Of a DNA stretch of 64,000 bases, positions 4,408 through 55,123 are shown one piece after another. The notes under the pieces are model-generated. The model searched no databases and was not told where the DNA came from. It saw only the letters and a program-made list of their open reading frames with translations. Position 1 is the first letter of the stretch. Every line of letters starts with the position of its first letter. The stretch lies in the NCBI RefSeq assembly GCF_056712565.1, contig NZ_CM160072.1; one strand, written 5' to 3'. Position numbers and translations under genes: made by a program.

Positions 4408-5445
4408 TTACCTCGCGAGAGTCACTGCGGAGGGAGAAGATTGCTCAAAACCGCGTTCAAGGATTTCCAGATTCGTAAGAACTTCAGATTCCTTGACGTA
4501 ATTTGGCGCACCGTTGGTGATGGTTTGATACAACGCATCATAAACGCGCCCATAATCGCCCATCTCTGGCTTCATCTCTTCTCTTACCGTCACGCCCTCG
4601 TCATTGACATACTCCAGCACACCGACCGAATCATCCGCTGCGAATCCTGGTTCGCCCGGCATAATATTAGCCTTCAGGCTGGTTTCCTGCTGGTCGATAC
4701 CGTATTTAATAAACGAACCTTTCTTACCGTGAACGATAAATTTCGGATAATCGATTTTCACCAGATGGCTGGTTTTGACGATGGCTTTTAGATCGCCATA
4801 AAACAGCTGCGCTTCAAAGGTGTCGTCCGGATTGGCTTTATTACGCAGGCTGCGGATGTCATAAGCGACGTGATCCGGGCGACCGAACAGAGAAATAATC
4901 TGGTCCATCGTATGCACACCAAGGCCATAGAACGCGCCATCCTGCGGCAGCCCCGGTTTGGTTTCTGCCACCGGGCGGTAATAGTCAAAATGGCTTTCCA
5001 CTTCGACAATCTCTCCCAGCTTGCCGCTTTCAATCGCTTTTTTCGCTGTCAGGAAGCAGGAATCAAAGCGACGATTCTGATACGGCGTAACGATCAGCCC
5101 TTTGCTTTTCGCCAGTGCAAACAGCTCTTTCGCCTGCGCAATTGTCGGAGTGAACGGTTTTTCGACCAGCACATTTTTCCCGGCTTCCAGCGCGCGCTTC
5201 GCGTACTCGAAGTGGCTGTCCGCGTGGGTGCAGACGACAACCAGCTTAACATCGGGATCGTTTAGCACTTCGTCGAGATCGCTGGTGAAATGGATATGGG
5301 AATAAATGGGGGCCTGTTCTTCCGGCTTCGCATGGCGGCGAAAAATATGCGCGACATGCCAGCTATCCTTGCGGTTAAGTACATACGGCAGATGGTAACG
5401 GGTGGTGCTTTTGCCGAAGCCAATAAAGGCGCAGTTAATGACCAT
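4408..5445 (-). CDS. yhhX: Gfo/Idh/MocA-family NAD(P)-dependent oxidoreductase
   Basis: 345 aa; N-terminal Rossmann GFGKS motif; matches YhhX. Confidence 0.9.
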   Translation of the reverse strand: MVINCAFIGFGKSTTRYHLPYVLNRKDSWHVAHIFRRHAKPEEQAPIYSHIHFTSDLDEVLNDPDVKLVVVCTHADSHFEYAKRALEAGKNVLVEKPFTPTIAQAKELFALAKSKGLIVTPYQNRRFDSCFLTAKKAIESGKLGEIVEVESHFDYYRPVAETKPGLPQDGAFYGLGVHTMDQIISLFGRPDHVAYDIRSLRNKANPDDTFEAQLFYGDLKAIVKTSHLVKIDYPKFIVHGKKGSFIKYGIDQQETSLKANIMPGEPGFAADDSVGVLEYVNDEGVTVREEMKPEMGDYGRVYDALYQTITNGAPNYVKESEVLTNLEILERGFEQSSPSAVTLAR

Positions 5446-5566
5446 GATTTCGTCCTTTTTAAGGTGGTTATTTACACCTTAGCGCAAAGCGGACGTGGTT
5501 CCTACTGGAGTGCGCATAACGAACACAAGCACTTCCCGAGGATAAATTGAGAACGAAAGGTCAAAA

Positions 5567-5657
5567 AAAAAGCCAGCACCCGGCTGGCTAAGTAATACTG
5601 GAAGCAATGTGAGCAATGTCGTGCTTTCAGGTTCTCCGCGAGGGTCTTCCTGATCGC
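5567..5657 (-). ncRNA. ryhB: RyhB small RNA (iron-sparing, Fur-repressed, Hfq-dependent)
   Basis: Minus-strand sequence gcgatcaggaagaccctcgcggagaacctgaaagcacgacattgctcacattgcttccagtattacttagccagccgggtgctggctttt matches RyhB, including its terminator hairpin and U-tail; lies in the yhhX-yhhY intergenic region as in K-12. Confidence 0.92.
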
Positions 5658-5659
5658 GA

Positions 5660-5680
5660 GACAATAATAATCATTCTCAT
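5660..5680 (-). promoter_or_regulatory. Fur box overlapping the ryhB promoter
   Basis: Sequence aataataatcattctc matches the Fur consensus (GATAATGATAATCATTATC) at about 13 of 15 positions, immediately upstream of the ryhB 5' end. Confidence 0.6.
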
Positions 5681-5778
5681 TCGCACTTGTCCAACACTTT
5701 TTGCAAAAAAATGCATTTGACTCGCATTTGAAAGTCAATGATGTTGAAAGGGACATTTACCCCAAAGAGGACAAAGGA

Positions 5779-6267
5779 ATGAGTGAGATAGTAATACGCC
5801 ACGCAGAAACACGCGATCACGAAGCCATCAGGCAGATTCACGCCCAGCCGGAGGTGTATTACAACACGCTACAGGTGCCTCATCCTTCAGAACAAATGTG
5901 GCTGGAACGACTCACCGCTCGCCCTGGCATCAAGCAGTTAGTCGCCTGTATTGATGGAATCGTCGTAGGCCATCTCACCATTGACGTGCAACAACGCCCA
6001 CGCCGCAGTCATGTTGCCGATTTTGGTATCTGTGTCGACTCTCGCTGGAAGAACCGCGGCGTCGCCAGCGCCCTGATGCGCGAAATGATTGATATGTGCG
6101 ACAACTGGTTGCGGGTAGATCGCATCGAGCTAACGGTGTTCGTCGCTAACGCGCCAGCAATTAAGGTCTATAAAAAATTCGGCTTTGAGATTGAAGGGAC
6201 TGGCAAAAAGTACGCATTACGTAATGGTGAATATGTCGATGCGTATTATATGGCGCGGGTGAAGTAA
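5779..6267 (+). CDS. yhhY: GNAT-family N-acetyltransferase
   Basis: Internal ATG gives 162 aa beginning MSEIVIRHAETRDHE; GNAT motifs (RGVASALM); matches YhhY. The ORF track start at 5701 is an upstream extension. Confidence 0.85.
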   Translation: MSEIVIRHAETRDHEAIRQIHAQPEVYYNTLQVPHPSEQMWLERLTARPGIKQLVACIDGIVVGHLTIDVQQRPRRSHVADFGICVDSRWKNRGVASALMREMIDMCDNWLRVDRIELTVFVANAPAIKVYKKFGFEIEGTGKKYALRNGEYVDAYYMARVK

Positions 6268-6274
6268 GATAGTG

Positions 6275-6299
6275 CCCTTTTTCTGAGATGGAAAAAGGG
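6275..6299 (+). terminator. Hairpin ccctttttc/gaaaaaggg downstream of yhhY
   Basis: 9-bp perfect inverted repeat 8 nt after the yhhY stop; the following U-tract is weak. Confidence 0.4.
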
Positions 6300-6502
6300 T
6301 GTCATTCAAAATCGGCATACCTTCCTTTAATGTATTTATTTTCCCAATAAATATATGAGATTTACCTCATAATTACTTCCTAAAGTGTAATATTTTATTT
6401 TTTAATATATACGCCTACAATTTCCTGGAGTAAATAAATAACAATTAACAAGCATAATATTGCCATTGATAAAATAGCATGCCATAAAAGGACTTTTCAG
6501 GG

Positions 6503-7681
6503 ATGAGTAATATTGTTTATCTGACAGTAACGGGAGAACAACAAGGAAGCATCTCCGCAGGTTGTGGGACTACTGAATCTATAGGTAATCGCTGGCAGAG
6601 CGGTCATGAGGATGAAATATTTACATTCTCACTCTTAAATAGTATTACTAATACGGGGCTTGGTTCACAGTTCCATGGTATAACATTTTGTAAATTAATT
6701 GATAAAAGCACTCCATTATTTATTAATTCCATTAACAATAATGAACAATTATTTATGGAATTTGACTTCTATCGAATAAATAGATTTGGTAGATGGGAAA
6801 AGTATTATTATATACAACTAAGAGGCGCTTTTTTATCGGCTATTCATCACCAGATCTTTGAAAACCAACTGGATACAGAAACAATAACTGTTAGTTATGA
6901 ATTTATCCTCTGCCAACATCTTATCACTAACACCGAGTTCAGCTATTTGGCACTCCCTGAAAATTATAACCGCTTGTTTTTACCAAATTCAAAAAACAAA
7001 ACAAATAATGGTTTAAAAACGTTAAACAGCGAAGCTGTTGGCAGGCTACTTGCTGCTGGTGGCGTATACAATGGGAACATTGAAGGATTCAGAGATACTG
7101 CGGAAAAACTGGGTGGAGATGCAATCAAAGGCTATGATCAAATACTAAATGAAAAAACAGCGGGCATAGCGATAGCAACAGCATCTATTCTTTTAACAAA
7201 GCGTTCTAATGTTGATACATATACAGAAATAAATAGTTACTTAGGCAAACTTAGAGGCCAACAAAAACTTCTTGATAGTATAGACATAATAGAAATAATA
7301 TAAATTAAGAGACCTTCAAAAGACTTAGCTAACTTACGAAAGGAGTTTAATAAAAATGTAAGAAAAAATTTTCTTATCAAACTTGCAAAAACCTCCGAAG
7401 CATCTGGAAGATTCAACGCCGAAGACCTTTTAAGAATGAGAAAGGGCAATGTTCCTCTAAATTATAATGTACACCATAAACTATCTCTAGATGATGGTGG
7501 TACTAATGATTTGGAAAATTTAGTATTAATCGAAAACGAACCATATCATAAGGTTTTTACTAACATGCAATCACGAATAGCTAAGGGAATATTAGTGGGT
7601 GAAAGCAAAATCACTCCCTGGGCCATTCCATCTGGCTCAATTTATCCTCCCATGAAAAATATTATGGAACCCACAAAATGA
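6503..7681 (+). pseudogene. yhhZ: yhhZ-like Hcp-domain polymorphic toxin with C-terminal HNH nuclease domain, interrupted by an in-frame TAA at 7301-7303
   Basis: ORFs 6503-7303 and 7436-7681 share one reading frame; codons after the TAA continue open (IKRPSKDLANLRKEF...) into an HNH motif (HHKLSLDDGGTNDLENLVLIENEPYHKVF). 266+1+125 codons equals the 392-aa K-12 YhhZ length as I recall it. Confidence 0.65.
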
Positions 7682-8172
7682 TGACTAAAACCCAAATAAA
7701 TAAATTAAAAAAAATGATGAATGATTTAGACTATCCATTTGAAGCACCGCTCAAGGAATCATTTATTGAAAGTATAATCCAAATAAAATTTAATTCTAAC
7801 TCAACTAATTGCCTGGAGAAGTTATGTAATGAAGTTAGTATTCTCTTTAATAATCAACCTGATTATCTTACTTTTTTAAGAGCAATGGATGGATTCGAAG
7901 TTAATGGATTACGATTATTTAGCCTCTCGATTCCAGAACCTTCAGTTAAAAACCTTTTTGCCGTAAATGAATTTTATAGAGATAATGATGATTTCATAAA
8001 TCCTGACTTACAAGAACGGTTAGTGATCGGGAATGATAGCATTTCAATATTTACTTATGACATTAAAAGTAACTTTTTTGAAATTAGAGATAATATTGGC
8101 ACAGAAAATATATTCAGTTCGTTTAGTGATTTCTCTTCATTCTTAAACGAAATCATGGACAGTTGTTCATAA
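7678..8172 (+). CDS. yrhA: Putative immunity protein for the YhhZ nuclease; intact here
   Basis: 164-aa ORF overlapping the yhhZ stop by 4 bp (ATGA), typical toxin-immunity coupling; AT-rich. In K-12 I recall yrhA being split by IS1; no IS1 sequence is present here. Confidence 0.65.
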   Translation: MMTKTQINKLKKMMNDLDYPFEAPLKESFIESIIQIKFNSNSTNCLEKLCNEVSILFNNQPDYLTFLRAMDGFEVNGLRLFSLSIPEPSVKNLFAVNEFYRDNDDFINPDLQERLVIGNDSISIFTYDIKSNFFEIRDNIGTENIFSSFSDFSSFLNEIMDSCS

Positions 8173-8621
8173 TAATAAAAAGGTAACCAAAATCATTGTA
8201 AACCATGCCATCTTTTTAGAGTTTACCAGCAGTAAATTTCTTGATCGAAATTTATCAATACAAGCTATAGAAAAACTTACAACGGAACTACACTCCTTAA
8301 GTGAGATGGACCGAAGACATGTAGTCGCTATTTAAACTGAAATAGCTAATGGCGATGATGATCTTAGTGACATGTTGATTTGGTTAGAATTTTACCCGAA
8401 TCATAAGATTCTGATATCTTAAATGAGCAAATCCGGTTCGACGTTCTGGAAAATAAATCACAAAATATTAGCAGATACTTATTTTGTGACTATACCTTAT
8501 CCGATGAACTCTTTTCAAAACCAGCATTTAATAATATCTTTGACGAAGATGAACGCGTCTTTGCTCAATGTATAACGCAGGAATAATAATATAACGCTAA
8601 ACAATAATATTTATTATAATT

Positions 8622-24443: not shown

Positions 24444-24845
24444 TTGAACCAGTTCAATATTATAATTCTGACACACGGTGAGGCAGGGAATGCTTTACTC
24501 GCCAGTAGCGAAATGATTGTAGGTAAAACACCGCATACTACAGCTATTTCTCTGATGCCGGGAATGTCACCTGAAGCACTTATGCAACAAGTAAAAACCA
24601 TACTCAATCCTGATGTAGAAACAATCATATTTACGGATATTTATGGCGGCACACCTTCAAATATCGCCTACCTTCTTTCACGAGAATTTCCCATTCGCTG
24701 CATCAGCGGTGTCAATCTGGCAATGTTAATTGAAGCCAACATGTTACAGGATTCTGACGAAGAACAGTCCTTTGATGAATATATTCAGCATATACATGAT
24801 GCTGGTAAAGAGATGATTCAAACTTATTGTTTTAATAAAGGATGA
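24444..24845 (+). CDS. PTS mannose/sorbose-family EIIA component (accessory)
   Basis: 133 aa; aligns with the ManX IIA domain (IIILTHGEAGNALL vs IVIGTHGWAAEQLL; TDIYGGTPSN vs VDTWGGSPFN; GVNLAMLIE). TTG start with an AAGGAA RBS. Confidence 0.8.
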   Translation: MNQFNIIILTHGEAGNALLASSEMIVGKTPHTTAISLMPGMSPEALMQQVKTILNPDVETIIFTDIYGGTPSNIAYLLSREFPIRCISGVNLAMLIEANMLQDSDEEQSFDEYIQHIHDAGKEMIQTYCFNKG

Positions 24846-24851
24846 TAAACT

Positions 24852-25337
24852 ATGAGTATAGTACATGCCCGTATTGATTACCGTTTAATTCATGGACAAG
24901 TCATAACAAAATGGCTAAAAAGGAGTGATGCAAATAAAATAATTGTTATTGATGATCCCTTGTCACGCGATCCTTTCCTGGCTGAAGTCTATAAGATGGC
25001 AGCGCCAAGTGGTGTTGAAGTCATAATGACCTCCATTGAAGATACGTTACAACGCTGGAACAGCAATAGTTTCTATGAAGGTAAATTACTAATTCTTTTC
25101 AAATCGATCGATTCTGCATTAAAAACTATACAAGGTGGTTTGATGTTAGAGGAATTACAAGTCGGTGGTGTTGAAAATACTCCGGGAAGAAAAATTGTCT
25201 TTAACCAAATATCACTCAACCACGAAGATGCCGACAAACTTCAAATCATCGAAGATAAGAATATCAAAGTTTATTTCCAAACTATTCCTGAAGAAGATCC
25301 TGCCAGCCTACAAAAAATCAAAAATAAGTTACCTTAA
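24852..25337 (+). CDS. PTS mannose/sorbose-family EIIB component
   Basis: 161 aa; conserved phospho-His motif ARIDYRLIHGQV as in ManX-IIB and LevE. Confidence 0.8.
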   Translation: MSIVHARIDYRLIHGQVITKWLKRSDANKIIVIDDPLSRDPFLAEVYKMAAPSGVEVIMTSIEDTLQRWNSNSFYEGKLLILFKSIDSALKTIQGGLMLEELQVGGVENTPGRKIVFNQISLNHEDADKLQIIEDKNIKVYFQTIPEEDPASLQKIKNKLP

Positions 25338-25353
25338 TTAAGGAGAGGAGCTT

Positions 25354-26100
25354 ATGTCTATTTTTACAGCAGCAATGATTGCCCTGGTATATTGGATATC
25401 CCAAGCAAAAGTATGGTACGGCTTTTCTATTATGCGTATGCCATTATCGATAGCACCTATTATGGGACTCATCTTTAATGATATGCCAACTGCTTTATCT
25501 GTTGGGGCCACCTTACAGATGATCTATATCGGGAGTATTGCCCCGGGAGGAAATCCTCCTGCAGATGAAGGTCTAGCCTCGTGTATAGCAATTCCAATTG
25601 CACTTACCGCAGGTATTAAACCAGAAATTGCTATCTCTTTGGCTATTCCACTGGGATTGCTCGGCGTTGTTCTGGAAAACGTACGTAAAACACTGAATAC
25701 CACATTTATCCACATGGCTGATCGCTACGCAGAAAAAGGTGATATAAAAGGCATCCAACGCGCAGCCACAATATATCCTCTCCTGTTAGCCTTTCCGATG
25801 CGTTTTGTACCGGTATTCATCGCCTGCCTGTATGGCCCGGATGCCATTGCCTCTTTTGTAAACCTGCTTCCCGCCTGGTCGACGAATGGCCTGGCAATTG
25901 CCGGTAATATTCTGCCTGCACTCGGTTTTGCGATAACCATAATTGTTATCGGTAAGAAACAATACATCCCTCTGTTCATTATTGGCTTTTTCCTCGTGAC
26001 CTATTCAGGCTTGAATACCATTGGCATCTCTATTTTTGGACTCTGTGCCGTCCTCTTATATATGCAGTCACAAAATACAAAAGGAACTAAAAATGGATAA
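25354..26100 (+). CDS. PTS mannose/sorbose-family EIIC membrane component
   Basis: 248-aa polytopic membrane ORF between IIB and IID; size and position typical of Man-family IIC. Confidence 0.75.
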   Translation: MSIFTAAMIALVYWISQAKVWYGFSIMRMPLSIAPIMGLIFNDMPTALSVGATLQMIYIGSIAPGGNPPADEGLASCIAIPIALTAGIKPEIAISLAIPLGLLGVVLENVRKTLNTTFIHMADRYAEKGDIKGIQRAATIYPLLLAFPMRFVPVFIACLYGPDAIASFVNLLPAWSTNGLAIAGNILPALGFAITIIVIGKKQYIPLFIIGFFLVTYSGLNTIGISIFGLCAVLLYMQSQNTKGTKNG

Positions 26101-26947
26101 TATAATTGAGTCAGGATACTCAGAATCCTCCCCTATTACGAAAAGAGACGTTCAGATTGTTTGGCTAAAATGGCACGCGTTCTCTGAAACATCATTGAAC
26201 TTTGAACGTTTACAAGCACTGGCATTTTGCAATGCAATGACAGGCGTATTGGCGAAGCTATACCCAGATGAAAAAGATCTCGCCAAAGCCTTACAGCGCC
26301 ATTTAACCATGTTCAACACACAGGCTAACTGGGGCTCGGTTATCGCTGGTATTAGTATTGCACTGGAGGAAAAAGCCGCCCAGGAATCAGAAGAACAACG
26401 TGAATCAACAACACAACTTGTTACGGGTTTAAAAACTGGTCTTATGGGGCCTGTATCGGGTATTGGTGACACGTTAGACTTTGGTACATTGCGTCCCATT
26501 GTTATTGGTGTCTGTATCCCGTTTGTTATTCAGGGATATGTTATTGCTGCACTTCTCCCCCTGATTTACCAGGTTAGTTATATGTTCTTCGCCAGTCGAT
26601 TTGCTCTTAATATCGGCTATAAAAAAGGGAAAGAGTCAATTCTGGAAATCTTGCATTCCGGGAGCATACATCGAATTATCGAAGGTGCTGGAATGTTCGG
26701 GCTGTTGATGATGGGGGCGCTTTCAGCAACGTATGTAAAAATTAAGACGCCATTGCATATTACAACCGGCGGTGGCAATACCATTGTCTTACAGGATATG
26801 CTAGATAAAATTGTCCCTAACATGTTGCCACTTATTGCCGTGTTGGGTATTTATTTTTACATACAAAAATGTGGCCCTCATTTCTTACGTATTCTGGTCA
26901 CTATTCTTGTTTTGAGTCTTGCATTTTCTTTCTTTGGCCTTTTATAA
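26093..26947 (+). CDS. PTS mannose/sorbose-family EIID membrane component
   Basis: ATG at 26093 with RBS AAGGAA, overlapping the IIC stop by 8 bp; 284 aa with hydrophilic N-terminus then TM segments. The ORF track start at 26021 is an extension. Confidence 0.75.
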   Translation: MDNIIESGYSESSPITKRDVQIVWLKWHAFSETSLNFERLQALAFCNAMTGVLAKLYPDEKDLAKALQRHLTMFNTQANWGSVIAGISIALEEKAAQESEEQRESTTQLVTGLKTGLMGPVSGIGDTLDFGTLRPIVIGVCIPFVIQGYVIAALLPLIYQVSYMFFASRFALNIGYKKGKESILEILHSGSIHRIIEGAGMFGLLMMGALSATYVKIKTPLHITTGGGNTIVLQDMLDKIVPNMLPLIAVLGIYFYIQKCGPHFLRILVTILVLSLAFSFFGLL

Positions 26948-26948
26948 A

Positions 26949-27869
26949 ATGAAAAAGATAATTATCACTCCCCGGCCTTTTGTGGGTAAAGGCAAGGTCT
27001 ATATTGATAAGTTAAAATCCGCAGGTTATCAAGTTGAATGTAATAACAGTGGAGGTCGATATAGCAAGGAAGAACTCATCGAGAAAATTAAAGACGCGAA
27101 TGCCATTATCACCGGAAACGATCCTCTGAGCAGAGAAGTTATTGATCAGGCAAAAAACCTGAAGGTTATTTCAAAATATGGCGTAGGGTTAGATAACATA
27201 GATGTCGATTACGCAAATAGTAAAGACATCGTGGTACATAAAGCTCTTAATGCTAACTCTATTTCTGTTGCAGAAATGACCATTCTGATGATGCTCTCCA
27301 GTTCCCGAAAATATGTTGAAATCGAGAGTCAGGCAAGAAATGGTAAGGACATCAGGCTTGTCGGGTATGAGCTATATCAAAAAAATCTGGGATTAATTGG
27401 ACTTGGTGCAATTGGTCAACATGTTGCTCATATTGCTCATTCTATGGGAATGACGATTACTGCTCATGATCCTCATATTGATAAAAGCAAGGTTCCATCC
27501 TATATAGAACTTAAATCACCTGATGAAATATATCAGTACAGCGATGTAATTTCTCTGCATTTACCTTTACTGGACAGTACTCGCAATATAATTAACGACT
27601 CTGTATTTGAGAAAATGAAATCTTCGGCTATTTTAATCAATACAGCCAGGGGTGGATTGGTCGATGAGAAAAGTTTATATACCGCACTTAGCAATCAGAA
27701 AATTGCTTTTGCCAGTGAAGATATTGAACTGAGAGAACGTTCAAAAGAACTCACCGAACTTAAAAATTATTCTATTACCCCTCATGCCGCTTCATTTACC
27801 GATGAGGCCGACCATAACACAATGCAAATTTCTATTAAAAACGTATTACAGGAACTGGAGAAAGAGTAA
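26949..27869 (+). CDS. D-isomer-specific 2-hydroxyacid dehydrogenase family, NAD-dependent
   Basis: 306 aa; Rossmann GLIGLGAIGQ and catalytic-region motifs (INTARGGLVDE, PHAA); start overlaps the IID stop region. Confidence 0.75.
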   Translation: MKKIIITPRPFVGKGKVYIDKLKSAGYQVECNNSGGRYSKEELIEKIKDANAIITGNDPLSREVIDQAKNLKVISKYGVGLDNIDVDYANSKDIVVHKALNANSISVAEMTILMMLSSSRKYVEIESQARNGKDIRLVGYELYQKNLGLIGLGAIGQHVAHIAHSMGMTITAHDPHIDKSKVPSYIELKSPDEIYQYSDVISLHLPLLDSTRNIINDSVFEKMKSSAILINTARGGLVDEKSLYTALSNQKIAFASEDIELRERSKELTELKNYSITPHAASFTDEADHNTMQISIKNVLQELEKE

Positions 27870-28753
27870 TGAAAGAGCTCAAAGGGATTATTACCGCAAT
27901 GGTAACGCCTTTCGATGAAACGGAAAAAATGGATATCACTGCGGCGAAAAAAATGGCGCGCTGGTTAGTAGATAATGGTGTTCATGGTTTATTCATTTGC
28001 GGAACTAATGGTGAATTCCATTTGCTTTCCGATGACGAAAAAGTTGAGTTAACAAAAGCCGTCGTTGAAGAGGTCGGTAATGAAGTTACCATTTGTGCAG
28101 GTGCTGGGTGCTGCAGCACAAAACAAACCATCGAATTGACTAAACGGTTAGTTGATGCGGGTGCCGATTATATTTCTGTTGTCACGCCGTACTATCTGGT
28201 ACCAAATCAGGAAGATTTATACCGTCACTATTACGATATTGCCTTTAGCACAACAGCCCCCATCATTCTCTATAACCTGCCGGGCCAGACAGGATTAAGC
28301 ATCGAATACGAAACGGCAAATCGTTTAGCCGATATCAAAAATATCGTAGCGATAAAAGACAGTAGCGGTAAATTCGAAGTCCAGAAACAGTATCTGGAAA
28401 TCGCTAAACATAAAAACTTTAAGGTATTAAACGGCTCTGACTCGTTAATGCTGGATGCATTTAAAGAAGGTTCTGTGGCTGCTGTCGCTGCAACGTCGAA
28501 TGTTCTGCCTACGATTGAAGTCGATTTATATAATTACTTCATGGCCGGTGAAATGGAGAAGGCGCAGGAAGAGCGTAATAAAATGGATGCACTGCGCATG
28601 ACGATCAAGAAAATGACCGCGCCTGCAGTAATGAAGGAAGCATTAAACCTGATGGGTGTGAAGGCAGGTATTACACGTAGACCAATTCATATGCCAAACG
28701 ACGCGATCGTTGAAGACATCAAGGAAATGTTGAAAGGCTATAATTTCCTGTAA
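27869..28753 (+). CDS. DapA/NanA-family class I aldolase or lyase (Schiff-base lysine)
   Basis: 294 aa; motifs GTNGEF, YNLPGQTG and AIKDSSG (Schiff-base Lys) as in dihydrodipicolinate synthase and N-acetylneuraminate lyase; TAATG overlap with the dehydrogenase. Confidence 0.75.
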   Translation: MKELKGIITAMVTPFDETEKMDITAAKKMARWLVDNGVHGLFICGTNGEFHLLSDDEKVELTKAVVEEVGNEVTICAGAGCCSTKQTIELTKRLVDAGADYISVVTPYYLVPNQEDLYRHYYDIAFSTTAPIILYNLPGQTGLSIEYETANRLADIKNIVAIKDSSGKFEVQKQYLEIAKHKNFKVLNGSDSLMLDAFKEGSVAAVAATSNVLPTIEVDLYNYFMAGEMEKAQEERNKMDALRMTIKKMTAPAVMKEALNLMGVKAGITRRPIHMPNDAIVEDIKEMLKGYNFL

Positions 28754-45283: not shown

Positions 45284-48087
<2,804 letters not shown>

Positions 48088-48285
48088 CACCTCCCAACGC
48101 GCCGTTATTTCCTGACGGCGCAGTAGACTTCTGCCAAATATCGACTCACGTCACATTTTGTTGATCACGATTTGGTCCCCTAAAATGTGAGACGCTTCGA
48201 TCCTCTTTTTCGCCTGTTCACCTACTATACGCTTGAAGTTGTCCATGATTGTCCATAGACAACTGTAAATGTTCAGGTGCGCGCC

Positions 48286-49032
48286 ATGAAATCATTGAGT
48301 AAGTCGTCACAAATACCGCTCTATCAACAAGCGGTGGAGTGGATAAGAGAAAGTATTTATACCGGGGATCTGGTGGAAGACGATCGCATTCCTTCGGAAT
48401 ACCAGATTATGGATATGCTGGAAGTGAGCCGGGGAACCGTTAAAAAAGCGGTCGCCCAACTGGTAAAAGAAGGCGTGTTGATACAGGTCCAGGGGAAGGG
48501 AACATTTGTCAAAAAAGAGAACGTGGCATATCCGTTAGGTGAAGGATTATTGTCATTCGCGGAATCGCTGGAAAGCCAGAAAATACATTTTACCACTGAA
48601 GTTATTACGTCACGGATTGAACCGGCTAATCGTTATGTGGCAGAGAAATTAAGAATAACGCCCGGTCAGGATATTCTTTACCTTGAGCGTTTACGTTCAA
48701 TTGGTGATGAAAAAGCGATGCTGATAGAGAACCGTATCAATATTGAGCTATGCCCCGGCATCGTGGAAATCGATTTTAATCAACACAATTTATTTCCAAC
48801 AATAGAAAGTTTGTCGCAAAGAAAAATTCGTTACTCGGAAAGTCGCTATGCCGCGCGATTAATTGGTAATGAACGCGGTCATTTTTTAGATATCAGTGAA
48901 GATGCACCCGTTTTGCATCTGGAGCAGTTAGTCTTTTTCTCCCGAGGATTACCCGTTGAGTTTGGCAACGTCTGGTTAAAAGGAAATAAATACTATCTTG
49001 GCACCGTGCTGCAACGGCGGGAAGTGAGTTAA
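48286..49032 (+). CDS. GntR/HutC-family transcriptional regulator (accessory island)
   Basis: About 248 aa; N-terminal winged HTH (YQIMDMLEVSRGTVKKAVAQLVKEGVLIQVQGKGTFV) and C-terminal UTRA-like domain. The ORF track offers a GTG at 48277. Confidence 0.75.
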   Translation: MKSLSKSSQIPLYQQAVEWIRESIYTGDLVEDDRIPSEYQIMDMLEVSRGTVKKAVAQLVKEGVLIQVQGKGTFVKKENVAYPLGEGLLSFAESLESQKIHFTTEVITSRIEPANRYVAEKLRITPGQDILYLERLRSIGDEKAMLIENRINIELCPGIVEIDFNQHNLFPTIESLSQRKIRYSESRYAARLIGNERGHFLDISEDAPVLHLEQLVFFSRGLPVEFGNVWLKGNKYYLGTVLQRREVS

Positions 49033-49056
49033 GTACACTTTTTTAAGAGGAATAAA

Positions 49057-49530
49057 ATGCAAGGCATACAGTTTCAGGAAAATTTTATTCAACGACTTCC
49101 GGCAGGGTTAAGCGTTGAACAGATCATCCATCAGTTAGCGCAACCGTTGGTTACCGCCGAACTGGTGGTCCCTGATTTTGCCGATCATGTACTGGAACGT
49201 GAGGCGACGTACCCAACGGGACTGCCTACCGAACCACCGTGTGTCGCCATTCCGCACACGGACCATAAACATGTCAGGCACAATGCAATTGCCGTCGGTA
49301 TCCTGCCGGAACCGGTAGTGTTTGCCGATATGGGCGGCGACTCTGATCCCGTACCTGTCAGGGTGATTTTTTTGCTCGCCTTAGGCGAAAGTAATAAACA
49401 ATTAAATGCCCTGGGCTGGATTATGGAGATGATTCAGGATACGCCCTTTATGCGCGCCCTGCTTACGATGGAAACAACAGAAATACACACAGCAATCTTA
49501 AACAAAATGAAAGAACGAGGTGAAATATGA
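49057..49530 (+). CDS. PTS EIIA component, fructose/mannitol/galactitol/ascorbate-type (PTS_EIIA_2)
   Basis: 157 aa; size and position immediately before EIIB and EIIC fit a GatA/UlaC-like IIA. Confidence 0.65.
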   Translation: MQGIQFQENFIQRLPAGLSVEQIIHQLAQPLVTAELVVPDFADHVLEREATYPTGLPTEPPCVAIPHTDHKHVRHNAIAVGILPEPVVFADMGGDSDPVPVRVIFLLALGESNKQLNALGWIMEMIQDTPFMRALLTMETTEIHTAILNKMKERGEI

Positions 49531-49808
49531 GTCAAACCATTTTATTTGTCTGCGCCACGGGTATTGCCACATCCACGGCAGTAACAGAAAAAGTCATGGA
49601 ATATTGTAAAGAGCACGGTCTTAACGTCAATTATTCCCAAACCAACGTTGCCTCTTTACCTGGAAATACTGACGGCGTAGCACTGGTAGTCTCAACGACT
49701 AAAGTGCCTTATGAACTCGACGTCCCGGTGGTTAACGGCTTGCCGATTATTACCGGTATTGGCGAAGAGAAAGTACTGGCGCAAATTGTTTCGATCCTTA
49801 AAAAGTAA
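49527..49808 (+). CDS. PTS EIIB component, GatB/UlaB-like
   Basis: 93 aa; N-terminal phospho-cysteine motif ILFVCATGIATS (Cys about position 9); ATGA overlap with the IIA gene. Confidence 0.75.
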   Translation: MSQTILFVCATGIATSTAVTEKVMEYCKEHGLNVNYSQTNVASLPGNTDGVALVVSTTKVPYELDVPVVNGLPIITGIGEEKVLAQIVSILKK

Positions 49809-49884
49809 TTAATAATAATTAATTTCAACCCACTCCATCAGGCGCTAACGCGAGGTGCGCTCTCGCCTGAAAAAGAGGTTTATT

Positions 49885-51243
49885 ATGAACGATATCGCGC
49901 ATACCCTCTATAATATTGTGCAATATATATTGGGATTTGGTCCCACGGTAATGTTGCCGTTGGTGTTATTTATTCTTGCTCTCTTTTTTAAAGTAAAACC
50001 CGCTAAAGCCTTACGTTCGTCATTAACGGTCGGCATTGGTTTTGTCGGTATTTATGCCATTTTCGATATTCTTACCAGCAATGTCGGGCCAGCGGCCCAG
50101 GCGATGGTTGAACGCACCGGAATTAATTTACCGGTGGTGGATTTAGGCTGGCCGCCGCTTTCCGCTATTACATGGGGTTCGCCAATTGCCCCGTTTGTTA
50201 TTCCCCTGACTATTCTGATTAACGTGGCGATGCTGGCGTTAAATAAAACCCGCACCGTTGACGTAGATATGTGGAACTACTGGCATTTTGCCCTTGCCGG
50301 TACGCTGGTTTATTACAGCACCGGCAGCCTGTTCTTTGGTTTGCTGGCAGCGGCGATTGCTGCGGTGGTAGTACTTAAACTCGCCGACTGGTCTGCGCCA
50401 CTGGTACAAAAATACTTTGGCCTGGAAGGGATCTCTTTGCCGACGCTCTCTTCGGTGGTGTTCTTTCCGGTCGGTCTGTTGGTCGACAAAATCATCGACC
50501 ATATCCCCGGCCTCAATCGTATTCATATCGATCCGGAAACCGTACAGAAAAAGTTTGGCATATTCGGCGAACCGATGATGGTTGGTACTATTCTGGGCAT
50601 TCTGCTCGGCGTAATTGCCGGATACGATTTCAAAAAAGTCTTGCTGCTTGGCATCAGCATTGGCGGTGTGATGTTCATCCTGCCACGCATGGTTCGCATT
50701 CTGATGGAAGGTTTATTACCGCTGTCTGAAGCCATTAAAAAGTATCTCAATGCCAAATACCCTGACCGTGACGATCTCTATATCGGCCTGGATATCGCCG
50801 TTGCCGTAGGTAACCCGGCGATTATCTCCACCGCCCTGCTGCTGACGCCAATCTCGGTCTTTATCGCGTTTGTCCTTCCGGGTAATGAAGTCCTGCCGCT
50901 TGGGGACCTTGCCAACCTGGCGGTAATGGCGTCGATGATTGCTTTAGCCAGCCGTGGCAACATTTTCCGCACCGTTCTGGCGGCGATTCCGGTGATTATT
51001 GCCGATCTGTGGATTGCGACTAAAATCGCGCCGTTTATTACCGGAATGGCGAAAGACGTTAATTTCAAATTTGCCGAAGGCTCCAGCGGCCAGGTCTCCA
51101 GTTTCCTTGATGGCGGTAACCCGTTCCGCTTCTGGCTGCTGGAAATCTTCAACGGCAATCTCATCGCCATTGGTCTGGTGCCGGTTATCGCCCTGGTACT
51201 GTATGGTATTTTCCGAATGACGCGGAGCACGGTTTATGCCTGA
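49885..51243 (+). CDS. PTS EIIC permease, galactitol/ascorbate-type
   Basis: About 452-aa polytopic membrane protein; ATG at 49885 preceded by RBS AAGAGG. The ORF track start at 49855 is an extension. Confidence 0.75.
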   Translation: MNDIAHTLYNIVQYILGFGPTVMLPLVLFILALFFKVKPAKALRSSLTVGIGFVGIYAIFDILTSNVGPAAQAMVERTGINLPVVDLGWPPLSAITWGSPIAPFVIPLTILINVAMLALNKTRTVDVDMWNYWHFALAGTLVYYSTGSLFFGLLAAAIAAVVVLKLADWSAPLVQKYFGLEGISLPTLSSVVFFPVGLLVDKIIDHIPGLNRIHIDPETVQKKFGIFGEPMMVGTILGILLGVIAGYDFKKVLLLGISIGGVMFILPRMVRILMEGLLPLSEAIKKYLNAKYPDRDDLYIGLDIAVAVGNPAIISTALLLTPISVFIAFVLPGNEVLPLGDLANLAVMASMIALASRGNIFRTVLAAIPVIIADLWIATKIAPFITGMAKDVNFKFAEGSSGQVSSFLDGGNPFRFWLLEIFNGNLIAIGLVPVIALVLYGIFRMTRSTVYA

Positions 51244-52744
51244 TAACAGCGCAGCTATCGTTATCGATATTGGCACCACCAATTGCAAAGTCACCTGCTT
51301 TTCCTGCCTGGACGCAACGACGTTGGGCGCGCATAAATTCGTGACGGCAAAACAGATCTCCCCACAGGGCAATGTCGATTTCGATATCGACGCCCTCTGG
51401 CAGGAGGTCCGCCAGGCGATAGCGCAACTGAACGCCGCTTCGCCGCTGCCAGTCAGGCGGATCAGCATTGCCAGTTTTGGCGAGTCAGGGGTGTTTCTTG
51501 ACAAACATGGCGAGATTCTGACGCCAATGCTGGCATGGTATGACCGTCGCGGTGAAGAGTATCTGGCAACGCTTAGCGAGGCAGACAGTGCGGCACTTTA
51601 TGACATTTGCGGGTTACCACTGCACAGCAATTACTCTGCCTTCAAAATGCGTTGGTTGCTGGAGCATTATCCGCTGCGCAATCGTCGCGGCCTGCGCTGG
51701 CTACATGCACCGGAAGTGCTGCTCTGGCGGCTGACTGGCGAACAGCGAACGGATATCACCTTAGCCAGCCGTACACTGTGTCTGGACGTGCGCAAAGGCG
51801 AATGGTCAGCGAAAGCGGCGGCGTTGTTACACGTTCCCTGTTCAGCATTTGCGCCATTGTTGCAGCCAGGTGAGCACGCCGGATGGGTCAGTGAGTCGCT
51901 CTGCAAAACGCTTGGGTTCTCGCAATCGGTCAGCGTGACGCTGGCCGGACATGACCATATGGTGGGTGCGCGGGCGTTGCAGATGATGCCGGGCGATATC
52001 CTTAACTCGACGGGCACCACGGAAGGCATTCTGCAACTGGATACACAACCGACGCTGGATGAACAGGCCAAACGTGACAAGCTGGCAAACGGCTGTTACT
52101 CGCTTGCCAACCAGTTCACCCTGTTTGCTTCTCTGCCCGTGGGCGGTTTCGCGCTGGAGTGGCTGCGTAACACGTTCCGGCTAACCGATGAGGAGATCGC
52201 CGTGTCGCTCAATCGTGGGTATGCGGATTACCTGGCGGGGAACTGGTCGCTCGATGACATTCCCGTTTTTATTCCGCATCTTCGCGGTTCGGGTTCGCCC
52301 TATAAAAATCGCCATACCCGAGGATTATTTTATGGGCTTGGCGATACGTTAAATATCGATATGTTAATTGCCAGCGTCTCACTGGGATTAACCATGGAAT
52401 TTGCCAACTGCTTCGCCTGTTTTAATGTGCCCGGCACCAGCGCGTTAAAAGTGATAGGTCCGGCAACCCATAATCCCCTTTGGCTGCAATTAAAGGCGGA
52501 TATTTTACAGCGTCCGGTTGAAGCAATTGCATTTAACGAGGCGGTTTCTGTCGGAGCATTATTAACCGCCGCACCGGATATTCCACCGCCGCAAGTCACC
52601 ATAGCCCAACGTTTGTTACCGAATCGGGCGAGATACCATCAATTACAGCGTTATCAGCACAAATGGAAAAGCTGGTATCAGTTGAAATTACAGCAAGAAG
52701 GCGTGATGCCATTACATCATCGGGAGGAGCACTATGTTGAGTAA
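51236..52744 (+). CDS. FGGY-family carbohydrate kinase
   Basis: 502 aa; N-terminal FGGY motif AIVIDIGTTNCKV; 8-bp overlap with the IIC gene. Confidence 0.75.
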   Translation: MPDNSAAIVIDIGTTNCKVTCFSCLDATTLGAHKFVTAKQISPQGNVDFDIDALWQEVRQAIAQLNAASPLPVRRISIASFGESGVFLDKHGEILTPMLAWYDRRGEEYLATLSEADSAALYDICGLPLHSNYSAFKMRWLLEHYPLRNRRGLRWLHAPEVLLWRLTGEQRTDITLASRTLCLDVRKGEWSAKAAALLHVPCSAFAPLLQPGEHAGWVSESLCKTLGFSQSVSVTLAGHDHMVGARALQMMPGDILNSTGTTEGILQLDTQPTLDEQAKRDKLANGCYSLANQFTLFASLPVGGFALEWLRNTFRLTDEEIAVSLNRGYADYLAGNWSLDDIPVFIPHLRGSGSPYKNRHTRGLFYGLGDTLNIDMLIASVSLGLTMEFANCFACFNVPGTSALKVIGPATHNPLWLQLKADILQRPVEAIAFNEAVSVGALLTAAPDIPPPQVTIAQRLLPNRARYHQLQRYQHKWKSWYQLKLQQEGVMPLHHREEHYVE

Positions 52745-53003
52745 AACCGTGGAAGTCAGAAACAGTACTGGCCTGCATGCACGTCCGGCGGCCTGTCTGG
52801 CGAAAGCCGCCAAAAAATATAGCTGTAAAGTGACGCTGCACTATGAAGGTAATGATATTAATGCCACCAGCATGATGAATATTATGCGCGCCGGAATAAA
52901 AGGCGGAAAAACGGTGGAAATACGCTGCGAAGGTGATGATGAAAACGAGGCAATACAAACTCTCACTACCTTATTTCGCGACCGCTTCGGTGAAGCTGAA
53001 TAA
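52734..53003 (+). CDS. HPr-family phosphocarrier protein paralogue
   Basis: 89 aa; active-site motif GLHARPA (His-15 equivalent) and a Ser-46-like region (ATSMMNIM). Confidence 0.8.
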   Translation: MLSKTVEVRNSTGLHARPAACLAKAAKKYSCKVTLHYEGNDINATSMMNIMRAGIKGGKTVEIRCEGDDENEAIQTLTTLFRDRFGEAE

Positions 53004-53034
53004 TTAACTGATATTAAAAGATGAGGTTTTCAAT

Positions 53035-53886
53035 ATGCCATTAGTTAATGGACGGATACTGCTCGACCGCATTCAGGAAAAACGGGTATTAGCGGGCGCA
53101 TTTAATACCACCAATCTGGAGACAACGATTTCAATTTTAAACGCCATTGAGCGTTCAGGATTACCCAACTTCATTCAGATTGCGCCCACCAATGCACAAC
53201 TGTCGGGATACGATTACATTTATGAAATCGTGAAACGTCACGCTGATAAAATGGATGTTCCGGTCAGTCTTCATCTTGATCACGGGAAAACTCAGGAGGA
53301 TGTTAAACAGGCGGTGCGCGCGGGCTTTACCTCGGTCATGATTGACGGTGCCGCATTCTCTTTTGAAGAGAATATCGCTTTCACCCAGGAAGCTGTCGAT
53401 TTCTGTAAATCCTATGGCGTACCGGTTGAAGCGGAGCTGGGGGCGATTCTCGGCAAAGAAGACGATCACGTCAGCGAAGCCGATTGCAAAACGGAACCGG
53501 AAAAGGTGAAGACCTTTGTCGAACGCACCGGTTGCGACATGCTGGCAGTTTCTATTGGTAACGTTCATGGCCTGGACGATATACCGCGGATCGATATCCC
53601 CCTGCTGAAGCGCATTGCCGAAGTCAGCCCGGTGCCGCTGGTTATTCACGGCGGCTCCGGTATCGCCCCGGAGATATTACGCAGTTTCGTTAATTATCGC
53701 GTCGCTAAAGTGAATATCGCCAGCGATCTGCGCAAAGCGTTTATCACCGCAGTCGGCAAAGCGTATGTGAATAATCACAACGAGGCGAATCTGGCACGGG
53801 TGATGGCATCAGCAAAAAACGCCGTCGAGGAAGATGTGTATAGCAAAATCCTGATGATGAATGAGGGGCATCGGTTGGGTAAGTAA
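53035..53886 (+). CDS. Class II (metal-dependent) ketose-bisphosphate aldolase, GatY/KbaY/FbaA family
   Basis: 283 aa; motifs LHLDHG, VIHGGSG and overall resemblance to tagatose-1,6-bisphosphate aldolases. Confidence 0.8.
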   Translation: MPLVNGRILLDRIQEKRVLAGAFNTTNLETTISILNAIERSGLPNFIQIAPTNAQLSGYDYIYEIVKRHADKMDVPVSLHLDHGKTQEDVKQAVRAGFTSVMIDGAAFSFEENIAFTQEAVDFCKSYGVPVEAELGAILGKEDDHVSEADCKTEPEKVKTFVERTGCDMLAVSIGNVHGLDDIPRIDIPLLKRIAEVSPVPLVIHGGSGIAPEILRSFVNYRVAKVNIASDLRKAFITAVGKAYVNNHNEANLARVMASAKNAVEEDVYSKILMMNEGHRLGK

Positions 53887-53891
53887 ATCTT

Positions 53892-53926
53892 CGCCGGATG
53901 CGGCGTGACGCCTTATCCGGCCTACA
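53892..53926. repeat. REP element at the right edge of the nikR-yhhJ island
   Basis: Sequence gccggatgcggcgtgacgccttatccggcctaca. Confidence 0.7.
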
Positions 53927-53995
53927 AAACCACTAAAATTCAATAAATTGCACCAATGCGTAGACCCTATAAGCTTACGCATCGGGCAACTGTAA

Positions 53996-55123
53996 TTACG
54001 CCATTGTCCCAATTGTCTTCCTGAATCTCAGCAGTGCGATGGTGAAAAACGCGCCGCCAATTGCCATCAGTGTCAGGAACTGCGGCCAGACGATTTCGAA
54101 TCCGGCACCACGGTAGAGGATGGCCTGCGCGAGGCTAACAAAGTGTGTCGTCGGCATGGTCAGCATAATGTCCTGCACCATCTGCGGCATACTTTCGCGC
54201 GGCGTGGAACCACCGGAAAGCATTTGCAGCGGCAGCAGCACCAGAATCACCAGCAGCCCCAGTTGCGGCATTGAACGCGCTATCGTCCCCATAAAAATGC
54301 CGATTGACGTGGTGGCAAACAAACTGAGCGCCACGCCCAGCATAAACAGCGGGATCGAGCCTTCAATCGGTACGCCCAGCACGCCTTTCACCATCAGCAC
54401 CAGCGATAATCCCGACACCACCAGCACCACCAGCCCCATCGACCAGACCTTTGCCATCATGATCTCAAACGGCGTTATCGGCATCACCAGTAAGTGTTCC
54501 ACCGTGCCGTGTTCACGCTCGCGGATCAGTGCCGATCCGGTCAACACAATCGCCAGCATGGTAATGTTGTTGATGATCGCCATCACCCCGCCAAACCACG
54601 CGGGATCGAGGTTCGGGTTAAAGCGCATCCGGGTTTCCAGCGATACCAACGGTTCGCTGTTATCACGGTAGCGCGCGACAAAGCTGTTCACTTCACCGTT
54701 GATAATATTCTGGATATAACCGTTGCCAGTGAATGCCTGGCTCATGCGCGTGGCATCGACGTTCACCTGAATATCCGGCTGGCGTCCGGCGAGGACATCA
54801 CGCTGAAAATTAGGCGGAATATTTATCGCGAAGGTATAACGTCCGGCGTCCAGTCCGGCATCCATCTCATCGGCGGTGATCATCTCCGGTGGCAAAAACC
54901 ACGGGCGATAGAAGCTGTTAACGATCCGGTTCGACAACTGCGATTGATCCATATCGGCTATGGCGATCGGCGCGAGGTTCAACGATCCTGGCGTAACGGT
55001 CGCTGACGAATACACCGACACCGTAAACGAGAAGACAATCAGCGTCAGCATCGCTTTATCACCGAGCAGACTGCGCAACTCTTTGATACCCAGATTAAAA
55101 ATATTGCGTAAATGGCGCATCAT
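53996..55123 (-). CDS. yhhJ: ABC-2 family transporter permease
   Basis: Likely native start MMRHLRNIF gives about 375 aa, overlapping the rbbA stop by 4 bp. The ORF track start at 55204 is an extension. Confidence 0.8.

Follow-up and report, generated by a model that had tools for sequence, protein, structure and literature searches.

A conserved cassette of an FGGY kinase, a PTS and a class II aldolase

We analyzed a 64,000-nucleotide stretch of DNA (NCBI RefSeq assembly GCF_056712565.1, contig NZ_CM160072.1), referred to below as the window, with a focus on a gene for an FGGY-family kinase (51236-52744, + strand) that lies inside an operon of the phosphotransferase system (PTS). This gene belongs to a conserved orphan cassette found across bacterial phyla, which combines a Gat-type PTS, or a transporter with a XylB-like kinase, with the FGGY kinase and a class II aldolase. 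The cassette marks a widespread sugar breakdown pathway. We give about an even chance to the interpretation that the operon encodes a ketose-bisphosphate route, in which the kinase would add a second phosphate to the monophosphate made by the PTS before the aldolase acts.

The kinase is encoded by the fifth of seven + strand genes that are separated by gaps of at most 76 nt and lie between nikR (47686-48087) and yhhJ (53996-55204, - strand). These genes encode, in order, a GntR/UTRA regulator, EIIA, EIIB, a Gat-type EIIC, the FGGY kinase, HPr and a class II aldolase. The open reading frame (ORF) of the kinase is intact and encodes 502 amino acids (RefSeq WP_001332160.1) with both Pfam domains of the family. 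Its ATG at 51236 follows a GGAG and lies upstream of the TGA stop of EIIC (51241-51243), an overlap of 8 nt. At the other end, the HPr gene starts with an ATG at 52734, after GGGAGGAG, and overlaps by 11 nt the end of the kinase gene, whose TAA stop is at 52742-52744. The kinase ORF is a real gene in a real operon and not a chance ORF. An earlier interpretation of the same letters, made before any comparison (the sequence-only reading), had placed an FGGY kinase inside a PTS operon, with its start over the EIIC stop and its stop over the HPr start, and this was borne out. Its picture of the operon was right for the PTS, the kinase and HPr but missed the class II aldolase, which is the most informative partner.

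The seven proteins of the window operon were scored against every ORF in 86 loci, among them a few duplicate assemblies. Homologs of the kinase that are 60-80% identical were found in Enterobacterales (Citrobacter, Salmonella, Klebsiella oxytoca, Cedecea, Rahnella, Sodalis and Pantoea), and a second group, 33-40% identical, was found in Enterococcus, Listeria, Pediococcus, Pectinatus, Selenomonas, Olsenella, Gilliamella, Bacillus, Microbacterium and others. A class II aldolase was encoded alongside the kinase in 83 of the 86 loci, and the three exceptions (L015, L072 and L078) are contig fragments. The constant core of the cassette is the kinase together with the class II aldolase. A Gat-type EIIC with its PTS was present in 73 loci, which belong to Enterobacterales, Bacilli, Negativicutes, Clostridia and Coriobacteriia. 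The kinase gene directly follows EIIC in 67 of these 73 loci, with overlapping genes in about 40 of them; the other six loci have a dehydrogenase and the aldolase between EIIC and the kinase. This tight coupling of kinase and transporter, by gene overlap and by position, argues for the ketose-bisphosphate route. The pairing of an FGGY kinase with a PTS, which had been described as unusual, proved not to be rare: at least 73 loci across phyla share it as a conserved cassette.

Interchangeable front ends in PTS-free loci

Eleven of the 86 loci have no PTS at all, and every one of them is from Actinobacteria. All 11 show the gene order aldolase, FGGY kinase, second FGGY kinase (FGGY2). FGGY2 is orthologous among these loci (719-1075 bits to the Arthrobacter copy), and no ortholog of it was found in any of the 73 PTS-bearing loci. 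It carries the XylB motifs GQQHT, SGDNAAAA and SLGTSGV and is the neighbor of XylB in our tree, which suggests that FGGY2 may be an omega-carbon kinase. In the three PTS-free loci for which the remaining genes were examined (L061, L088 and L089), the transporter is of the ATP-binding cassette (ABC) type or is an RbtT/DalT-type transporter of the major facilitator superfamily. A minimal locus in Catenuloplanes consists of an ABC transporter, the aldolase, the two kinases and a GntR regulator, and nothing more. Because the PTS and FGGY2 are mutually exclusive, the PTS and the combination of a transporter with a XylB-like kinase appear to be interchangeable front ends, for which the kinase and the aldolase form a common back end. 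The kinase is kept when the front end is swapped and therefore does not merely repeat the phosphorylation carried out by the PTS. The swap further suggests that the first phosphate would come from the PTS or the XylB-like kinase and the second from the kinase of the window.

The same pattern bears on the possibility of a parallel entry or salvage role, in which the kinase would act on leaked or dephosphorylated free sugar and yield the same monophosphate as the PTS, the second phosphate being provided by a housekeeping kinase such as PfkA. A kinase that duplicated the PTS step would suffice alone in a locus without PTS, yet all 11 PTS-free loci add the XylB-like kinase. The near-universal adjacency to EIIC and the frequent translational coupling across phyla would also be unexpected for a back-up enzyme. 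This role is consistent with the free substrates used by all characterized FGGY kinases (PMC3245297), with the use of PfkA for the second phosphate by both the gat pathway and the Nissle tag pathway of E. coli (PMC9720028) and with the phosphatases (SurE and a Cof-type HAD enzyme) encoded in some variants of the cassette, but we consider it improbable overall. The sequence-only reading had left two alternatives, a phosphorylation of the PTS product at the distal carbon or the use of a non-phosphorylated intermediate. Both survive and neither is proven; comparative genomics favors the first.

The kinase forms a distinct clade of FGGY enzymes

The kinase, whose N-terminus is MPDNSAAIVIDIGTTNCKV, is identical to a database protein (P0001, a cluster of 4169 member sequences) that bears Pfam PF00370 (FGGY_N) and PF02782 (FGGY_C), and its RefSeq label in ATCC 11775 is 'FGGY-family carbohydrate kinase'. 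Its AlphaFold2 model has a pLDDT of 93.5, and a Foldseek search with this model gave TM-scores of 0.78-0.85 to structures of xylulokinase, glycerol kinase and gluconokinase at just 18-22% identity. In a 33-sequence alignment of the family, D11, G13, T15, D240, T259, G260 and T261 are invariant and T14 is nearly so. D11/G13/T15 and T259/G260/T261 are the ATP-phosphate motifs, with the N-terminal motif D-x-G-T-T conserved, and D240, the catalytic Asp, is aligned to D245 of GlpK. The two-domain FGGY architecture and fold are thus present, and the conservation of these residues is what would be expected of an active enzyme.

None of the cut-offs of FGGY equivalogs was reached by the kinase, since all 12 NCBIfam models that it matched scored far below them. 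The best match was the XylB model (146 bits relative to a cut-off of 380), and the GlpK and FucK models scored 129 bits (cut-off 590) and 119 bits (cut-off 471), respectively. Among solved structures, a phmmer search placed glycerol kinases closest (87 bits), and LsrK and the GlpK of Enterococcus were also among the PDB matches. We built a neighbor-joining tree (100 bootstraps) with the E. coli kinases GlpK, XylB, LyxK, YgcE, FucK, RhaB, AraB and LsrK as references. The kinase family was monophyletic in 99 of 100 bootstraps and fell outside all eight references, to each of which the kinase is 17-22% identical (19.7% for GlpK). Neither the tree nor the fold places it any closer, as the kinase is equidistant from all eight E. 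coli kinases and from the Foldseek structures. By these comparisons, the kinase belongs to a distinct clade that lies outside every characterized FGGY isofunctional group tested. Orthology to a kinase of known free-sugar specificity, the finding that the sequence-only reading had named as contrary to its proposal, was not seen in the NCBIfam scores or in the tree, and the phylogenetic comparison with LsrK, LyxK, XylB and others that it had called for yielded a separate clade.

The clade can be recognized by the signature GHDHMxG together with LNSTGT[TS]EG. The His-Asp pair of the catalytic base is common to the kinase family (GHDH), FucK (GHDT) and RhaB (SHDT), and so is an F/W-G-x-x-G motif. 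The glycerol-binding Arg83 of GlpK is replaced by Gly in the kinase (SFGESG), and the pocket motifs are unlike those of GlpK. The PTS-linked second kinases TagK and FruK are PfkB-type enzymes. The contrast drawn earlier between these enzymes and FGGY kinases, which normally act on free substrates, agrees with the review of the family (PMC3245297).

The searches also returned a large set of uncharacterized FGGY kinases (P0142-P0263) that are 26-33% identical to the window kinase. Eighteen of the 21 members that were aligned carry GHDH, G-E-[AS]-G (or a near variant) and S-x-G-T-x-E, a signature that is found in none of the eight E. coli reference kinases, and the set looks like an unannotated FGGY superclade. 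The genes around its members P0142 and P0157, the nearest outgroup kinases, include neither a PTS nor an aldolase. A third FGGY kinase with the same GHDH motif is encoded in six of the 11 PTS-free loci (L061, at 6341-7717, L049, L064, L068, L070 and L084) and is distant from the family of the window kinase (48-68 bits). Finally, a database protein of 313 amino acids (P0072) has both an FGGY_C and an EIIC-GAT Pfam domain and matches part of the window kinase at 98% identity; it is probably a frameshifted or mis-called gene across the EIIC/kinase overlap and not a true fusion.

The aldolase and the proposed pathway

The last gene of the operon (53035-53886, + strand; WP_001131791.1) encodes a class II (Zn-dependent) aldolase of the ketose-bisphosphate aldolase superfamily, which scores 555 bits against the NF005943 equivalog (cut-off 364). 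Its closest solved relative is the tagatose-1,6-bisphosphate aldolase AgaY (PDB 1gvf, 167.8 bits), and it is 32-36% identical to GatY, KbaY and YdjI (32% for GatY). The catalytic Asp and the three Zn-binding His (D82, H83, H178 and H205) are invariant in 79 of 79 family members, which suggests an intact active site of the class II, Zn-dependent ketose-bisphosphate type.

We propose that the seven genes form a single autoregulated catabolic operon for a ketose, or for a compound converted directly into one. Phosphoryl groups would flow from the general enzyme I to the HPr of the operon and then to EIIA and EIIB, and the Gat-type EIIC would import the sugar as a monophosphate. With ATP, the FGGY kinase would then add a second phosphate at the opposite terminal carbon, most likely C1, beside the keto group, to give a ketose 1,omega-bisphosphate. 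Cleavage of this bisphosphate by the class II aldolase would release dihydroxyacetone phosphate (DHAP) along with a phosphorylated aldehyde, which for a hexulose would be glyceraldehyde 3-phosphate, and both products would enter glycolysis. The kinase would play the role of TagK, FruK or PfkA in the tagatose, fructose and galactitol routes, with an FGGY fold. We infer the order of these steps, the phosphorylated substrate of the kinase, the position phosphorylated and the operator described below; gene content, operon structure, family assignments, conservation of active-site residues and phyletic pattern are direct observations.

Several features point to C1 as the target. The kinase that substitutes for the PTS is XylB-like, and known XylB enzymes transfer the phosphate onto the carbon distal to the keto group and not onto C1. 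The His-Asp base and the F/W-G-x-x-G motif are those of the ketose 1-kinases FucK and RhaB. In addition, the polyol variants of the cassette (in Bacillaceae, in Staphylococcus pseudoxylosus and in a Pantoea/Raoultella/Erwinia paralog) contain added Zn-dehydrogenases whose best named match is galactitol-1-phosphate 5-dehydrogenase (GatD). GatD makes a ketose 6-phosphate, which still needs a phosphate at C1 for aldol cleavage, and GatD-like dehydrogenases would likewise give omega-phosphates.

Two phosphorylations and one aldolase would also be found in a pathway resembling liver fructolysis, in which the PTS or the XylB-like kinase would give a ketose 1-phosphate, the aldolase would release DHAP and a free aldehyde (such as D-glyceraldehyde or erythrose) and the kinase would act on this aldehyde as a triokinase does. 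This scheme fits the replacement of the PTS by a transporter and FGGY2. It is also in line with the glycerol kinases being the closest solved structures (87 bits), with the ability of E. coli GlpK to accept glyceraldehyde and dihydroxyacetone, with the annotation of YdjI, a relative of the aldolase, as cleaving a ketose monophosphate, and with the expected distal-phosphate residue not being conserved in the aldolase family. However, it would require a phosphate at C1 from a XylB-like kinase, when known XylB enzymes act far from the keto group, and the GatD-like dehydrogenases of the polyol variants would yield omega-phosphates. The substitution of Arg83, the different pocket motifs and the 19.7% identity to GlpK also speak against a triokinase-like role. 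This scheme fits the XylB-like FGGY2 and the GatD-like dehydrogenases less well than the bisphosphate route does, and we regard it as rather unlikely.

Other observations weigh against the ketose-bisphosphate route itself. The two-kinase pattern is explained no less well by the cleavage-product model. The grouping of the kinase with FucK and RhaB is weak (36 of 100 bootstraps), and the GHDH motif is also present in the large uncharacterized FGGY superclade, so that GHDH does not appear to be proof of 1-kinase chemistry. The Arg of the 'DPR' motif in class II fructose-bisphosphate aldolases (R331 of E. coli FbaA) binds the C6 phosphate. The position next to it, with the alignment offset by one residue, is basic (R/K) in only 54 of the 79 aldolases of the family, the other 25 having S, N, A, G or H, and this alignment does not establish a site for the distal phosphate in the aldolase. 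No FGGY kinase is known to use a phosphorylated sugar, and all nine FGGY functions covered by the family review act on non-phosphorylated substrates (PMC3245297). Finally, in phenotype arrays (PMC4334874), none of the obvious candidate sugars supported growth of the type strain DSM 30083T, whose DNA matches the window, which leaves the route with no anchoring phenotype.

PTS components and the role of HPr

The sugar-specific part of the PTS is encoded by three + strand genes. EIIA (49057-49530) is of the PTS_EIIA_2 type and resembles galactitol/fructose EIIA proteins: it scores 57.8 bits against the NCBIfam galactitol IIA model (cut-off 139), its orthologs carry Pfam PF00359 and its sequence contains the histidine motif AIPHT. 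EIIB (49527-49808) is of the galactitol type, and its start overlaps the EIIA stop by 4 nt. It scores 60.2 bits against galactitol IIB (cut-off 95), has an N-terminal Cys within the motif FVCATG and has orthologs with Pfam PF02302. EIIC (49885-51243; RefSeq WP_001306345.1, with the longest ORF starting at 49855) belongs to the Gat family and scores 475.6 bits against TIGR00827 (EIIC-GAT), for which the galactitol cut-off is 542.2. All three components are below the galactitol cut-offs, which suggests that this is a Gat-family PTS that is not galactitol-specific. With EIIA, EIIB, EIIC and the phosphorylatable His and Cys, the sugar-specific PTS is predicted to be complete.

The HPr paralog (52734-53003, + strand) scores 103.5 bits against TIGR01003, above the cut-off of 47.9, and keeps both His15 (GLHARPA) and Ser46. 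It is probably the dedicated phosphocarrier of the operon PTS. PTS proteins are known to regulate FGGY kinases: GlpK is controlled by EIIAGlc and, in Firmicutes, activated by HPr~P, and E. coli LsrK is controlled by HPr. One could then suppose that the HPr paralog mainly controls the kinase rather than feeding the PTS, and the 11-nt overlap of the two genes in the window would be consistent with this, as would the LsrK and Enterococcus GlpK structures among the matches of the kinase. We consider such a regulatory pairing very improbable. HPr is encoded in 37 of the 86 loci, mainly in Enterobacterales, and in none of the other 49, which include nearly all Firmicutes. Even in Enterobacterales it adjoins the kinase solely in the arrangements of the Escherichia/Citrobacter/Enterobacter type, and it follows the aldolase in Salmonella, Klebsiella and others. 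In a Paenibacillus locus (L051), an HPr gene and then an enzyme I gene lie downstream of the kinase, which together make a phosphorelay set. The window HPr itself keeps His15 and scores as a normal HPr.

Variants of the cassette

A paralogous cassette was observed in Enterobacterales (Pantoea, Erwinia, Raoultella, Buttiauxella and Serratia), with a kinase about 36% identical to that of the window (L006/L040, L047, L048, L053, L055-L057, L073, L079, L082, L083 and L085). Its genes are ordered as IIA-IIB-IIC-FGGY and, after a gap of about 1.1-1.2 kb, as GntR-aldolase-HPr. In the one such locus that was read, from Pantoea rwandensis (L006/L040), the gap is occupied by a Zn-dehydrogenase gene, and HPr is followed by a SurE-type phosphatase and another Zn-dehydrogenase, which suggests that the paralog is a polyol-specific sister pathway. 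In the Enterococcus avium group (E. raffinosus, E. malodoratus and E. avium; L033-L035), the cassette's own aldolase is joined by a second class II aldolase paralog (about 285-290 bits), encoded immediately downstream of the cassette at about 10826-11770.

Relation to known sugar pathways

The fructose system FruBKA follows the same logic as the window operon, including a dedicated HPr-like carrier (the FPr domain of FruB). The D-tagatose PTS route of Klebsiella and Salmonella (TagTH-TagK-GatYZ) provides an experimentally established precedent with a non-FGGY kinase: a PTS monophosphate is converted by an operon-encoded kinase into a 1,6-bisphosphate, which is cleaved by a class II aldolase (PMC9720028). 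TagK and FruK belong to the PfkB/ribokinase family, whereas the sole kinase of the window operon is an FGGY enzyme. Both routes also use a fructose-family PTS instead of a Gat-family one, and no partner similar to GatZ is encoded in the window operon. By its sequences, the window operon appears similar to the tagatose and fructose PTS routes but differs from them in the family of the kinase.

The FucK/FucA and RhaB/RhaD systems provide the other half of the comparison, since each encodes an FGGY kinase with the aldolase that cleaves its product, as in the window operon. FucK and RhaB are 18-22% identical to the window kinase, and their sugars enter by permeases and not by a PTS. The aldolases FucA and RhaD come from another family (Aldolase_II) and cleave monophosphates. 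The galactitol system of E. coli (GatABC-GatD-(PfkA)-GatYZ) shares the families of EIIA, EIIB and EIIC with the window operon and has a related aldolase (GatY, 32% identity), and GatD-like dehydrogenases recur in the polyol variants of the cassette. The gat operon, however, has no kinase of its own and uses PfkA, whereas the window operon encodes its own FGGY kinase. In addition, the window PTS is below the galactitol cut-offs, and the type strain that carries the operon is dulcitol-negative (PMC4334874).

The ABC-type D-tagatose cluster of Nissle and phylogroup B2, at accC-yhdT, is also an accessory sugar island, found in the same lineage of E. coli, that relies on two successive phosphorylations and ends in a GatY-like aldolase (PMC9720028). 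It differs from the window operon by its locus, its ABC transporter and its small sugar kinases (about 320 amino acids), with tagatose kinase providing the first phosphate and PfkA the second (PMC9720028). The orthologous system in Salmonella enterica is STM3779-STM3785, which has the same gene set, with a kinase 63% identical to that of the window. This island adjoins the uhp genes, and the order of HPr and aldolase is swapped relative to the window operon. It has been described as a PTS of 'unknown specificity' that was acquired by the ancestor of subspecies enterica and is repressed by H-NS (PMC3604774), and a 2024 study still listed it under 'unknown sugars' (PMC11000858). We found no functional study of the operon, of its proteins or of the STM orthologs in a literature search that covered freely accessible papers.

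Candidate substrates

D-Tagatose was rejected as the substrate: the operon is intact in E. coli Nissle 1917 (ECOLIN_RS19900-19930), yet growth of this strain on D-tagatose is lost when the separate accC-yhdT tag cluster is deleted (PMC9720028). D-psicose (allulose) is an attractive candidate, as D-psicose, D-arabinose and lactitol support growth of Nissle but not of K-12 (PMC7924626). It is not supported, since DSM 30083T, whose DNA is identical over the operon, is D-psicose-negative (PMC4334874), and the known psicose routes use AlsE (PMC6020474, PMC12216980). Phenotype arrays of DSM 30083T were also negative for dulcitol, adonitol, D- and L-arabitol, erythritol, xylitol and sedoheptulosan (PMC4334874). 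Either the phenotype plates lack the true substrate or the operon stays silent in these assays; the latter is possible because the Salmonella island is reported to be repressed by H-NS (PMC3604774). On chemical grounds, a hexulose (giving DHAP and glyceraldehyde 3-phosphate) or a heptulose (giving DHAP and erythrose 4-phosphate) is more plausible than a pentulose.

Regulation and genomic setting of the operon

The first gene of the operon (48286-49032, + strand; RefSeq WP_001332161.1, with the longest ORF starting at 48277) encodes a GntR/UTRA regulator of the HutC type. Its only matches among NCBIfam models were below threshold, to models of the PhnF, TreR and HutC type, and its Salmonella ortholog carries the Pfam domains GntR and UTRA. 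A perfect palindrome, TTGTCCATAGACAA (48249-48262), precedes the RefSeq start of the regulator by 24 nt. It occurs as one exact copy in the window, where 0.23 matches are expected with at most one mismatch. A single occurrence of TTGTCNATNGACAA, at the same place shortly before the GntR gene, was found in each of 19 related Enterobacterales loci and in the ATCC 11775 copy of the window locus (L001). The palindrome resembles the operators of the HutC family, and it is likely the operator of the GntR/HutC-type regulator. Its placement upstream of the regulator gene suggests that the whole operon is autoregulated. The GntR/UTRA protein would probably repress at TTGTCCATAGACAA until it is bound by an intermediate of the pathway. 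A scan for consensus promoters and terminators revealed sites no more numerous than in shuffled sequence. Most cassettes are associated with GntR/UTRA regulators, and regulators of the Mga/PRD type are found in Pectinatus, Staphylococcus pseudoxylosus and Paenibacillus.

The stretch from 48100 to 54000 is 100.0% identical in DNA to ATCC 11775 (the same strain as DSM 30083T), NU14, APEC O18 and others, and the window matches an E. coli chromosome of the phylogroup B2 type. The region was matched in 1915 of 5426 complete E. coli genomes (about one-third), on the chromosome every time, and 1635 of the 1915 had a single match spanning at least 80% of the stretch. Genomes with the operon region include the extraintestinal pathogenic strains NU14 and APEC O18 and the probiotic Nissle 1917.

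Two other parts of the window have a low GC content. A second accessory sugar island (about 24444-28753, - strand; GC 0.37-0.40) lies between rpoH and livJ and, according to the annotation of ATCC 11775, encodes a mannose-family PTS (IIA/IIB/IIC/IID), a 'phosphoglycerate dehydrogenase' and a DapA-family lyase. This island is absent from E. coli Nissle, in which rpoH adjoins livJ. The lowest GC of the window (0.348) was found at about 6500-8420, a region with yrhB, a yrhD-like pseudogene, yrhA and a tssD/Hcp-family gene. This tssD is annotated as a pseudogene with an internal stop in ATCC 11775, whereas it is annotated as intact in Nissle.

Implications

It is possible, at somewhat less than even confidence, that these enzymes are the first FGGY kinases to act on a sugar phosphate. 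They would be ketose-phosphate 1-kinases that have replaced, without homology, the PfkB-type TagK and FruK in a widespread and previously unrecognized bisphosphate pathway for a sugar or polyol that is absent from standard phenotype panels. Its carriers would be E. coli lineages with extraintestinal pathogens among them, along with Salmonella enterica subspecies I, enterococci and many gut- and plant-associated bacteria. If true, a sugar-phosphate substrate would extend the known chemistry of a large and well-studied family of kinases and would correct the generic labels 'L-fuculokinase' and 'carbohydrate kinase' for this clade. The actinobacterial versions of the cassette encode a solute-binding protein (at 5246-6322 in the Catenuloplanes locus L089 and at 6413-7795 in the Arthrobacter locus L088), and a ligand screen of this protein offers a direct way to the identity of the sugar. 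Knowing this nutrient would bear on the adaptation to gut and host niches of the pathogens that carry the operon.

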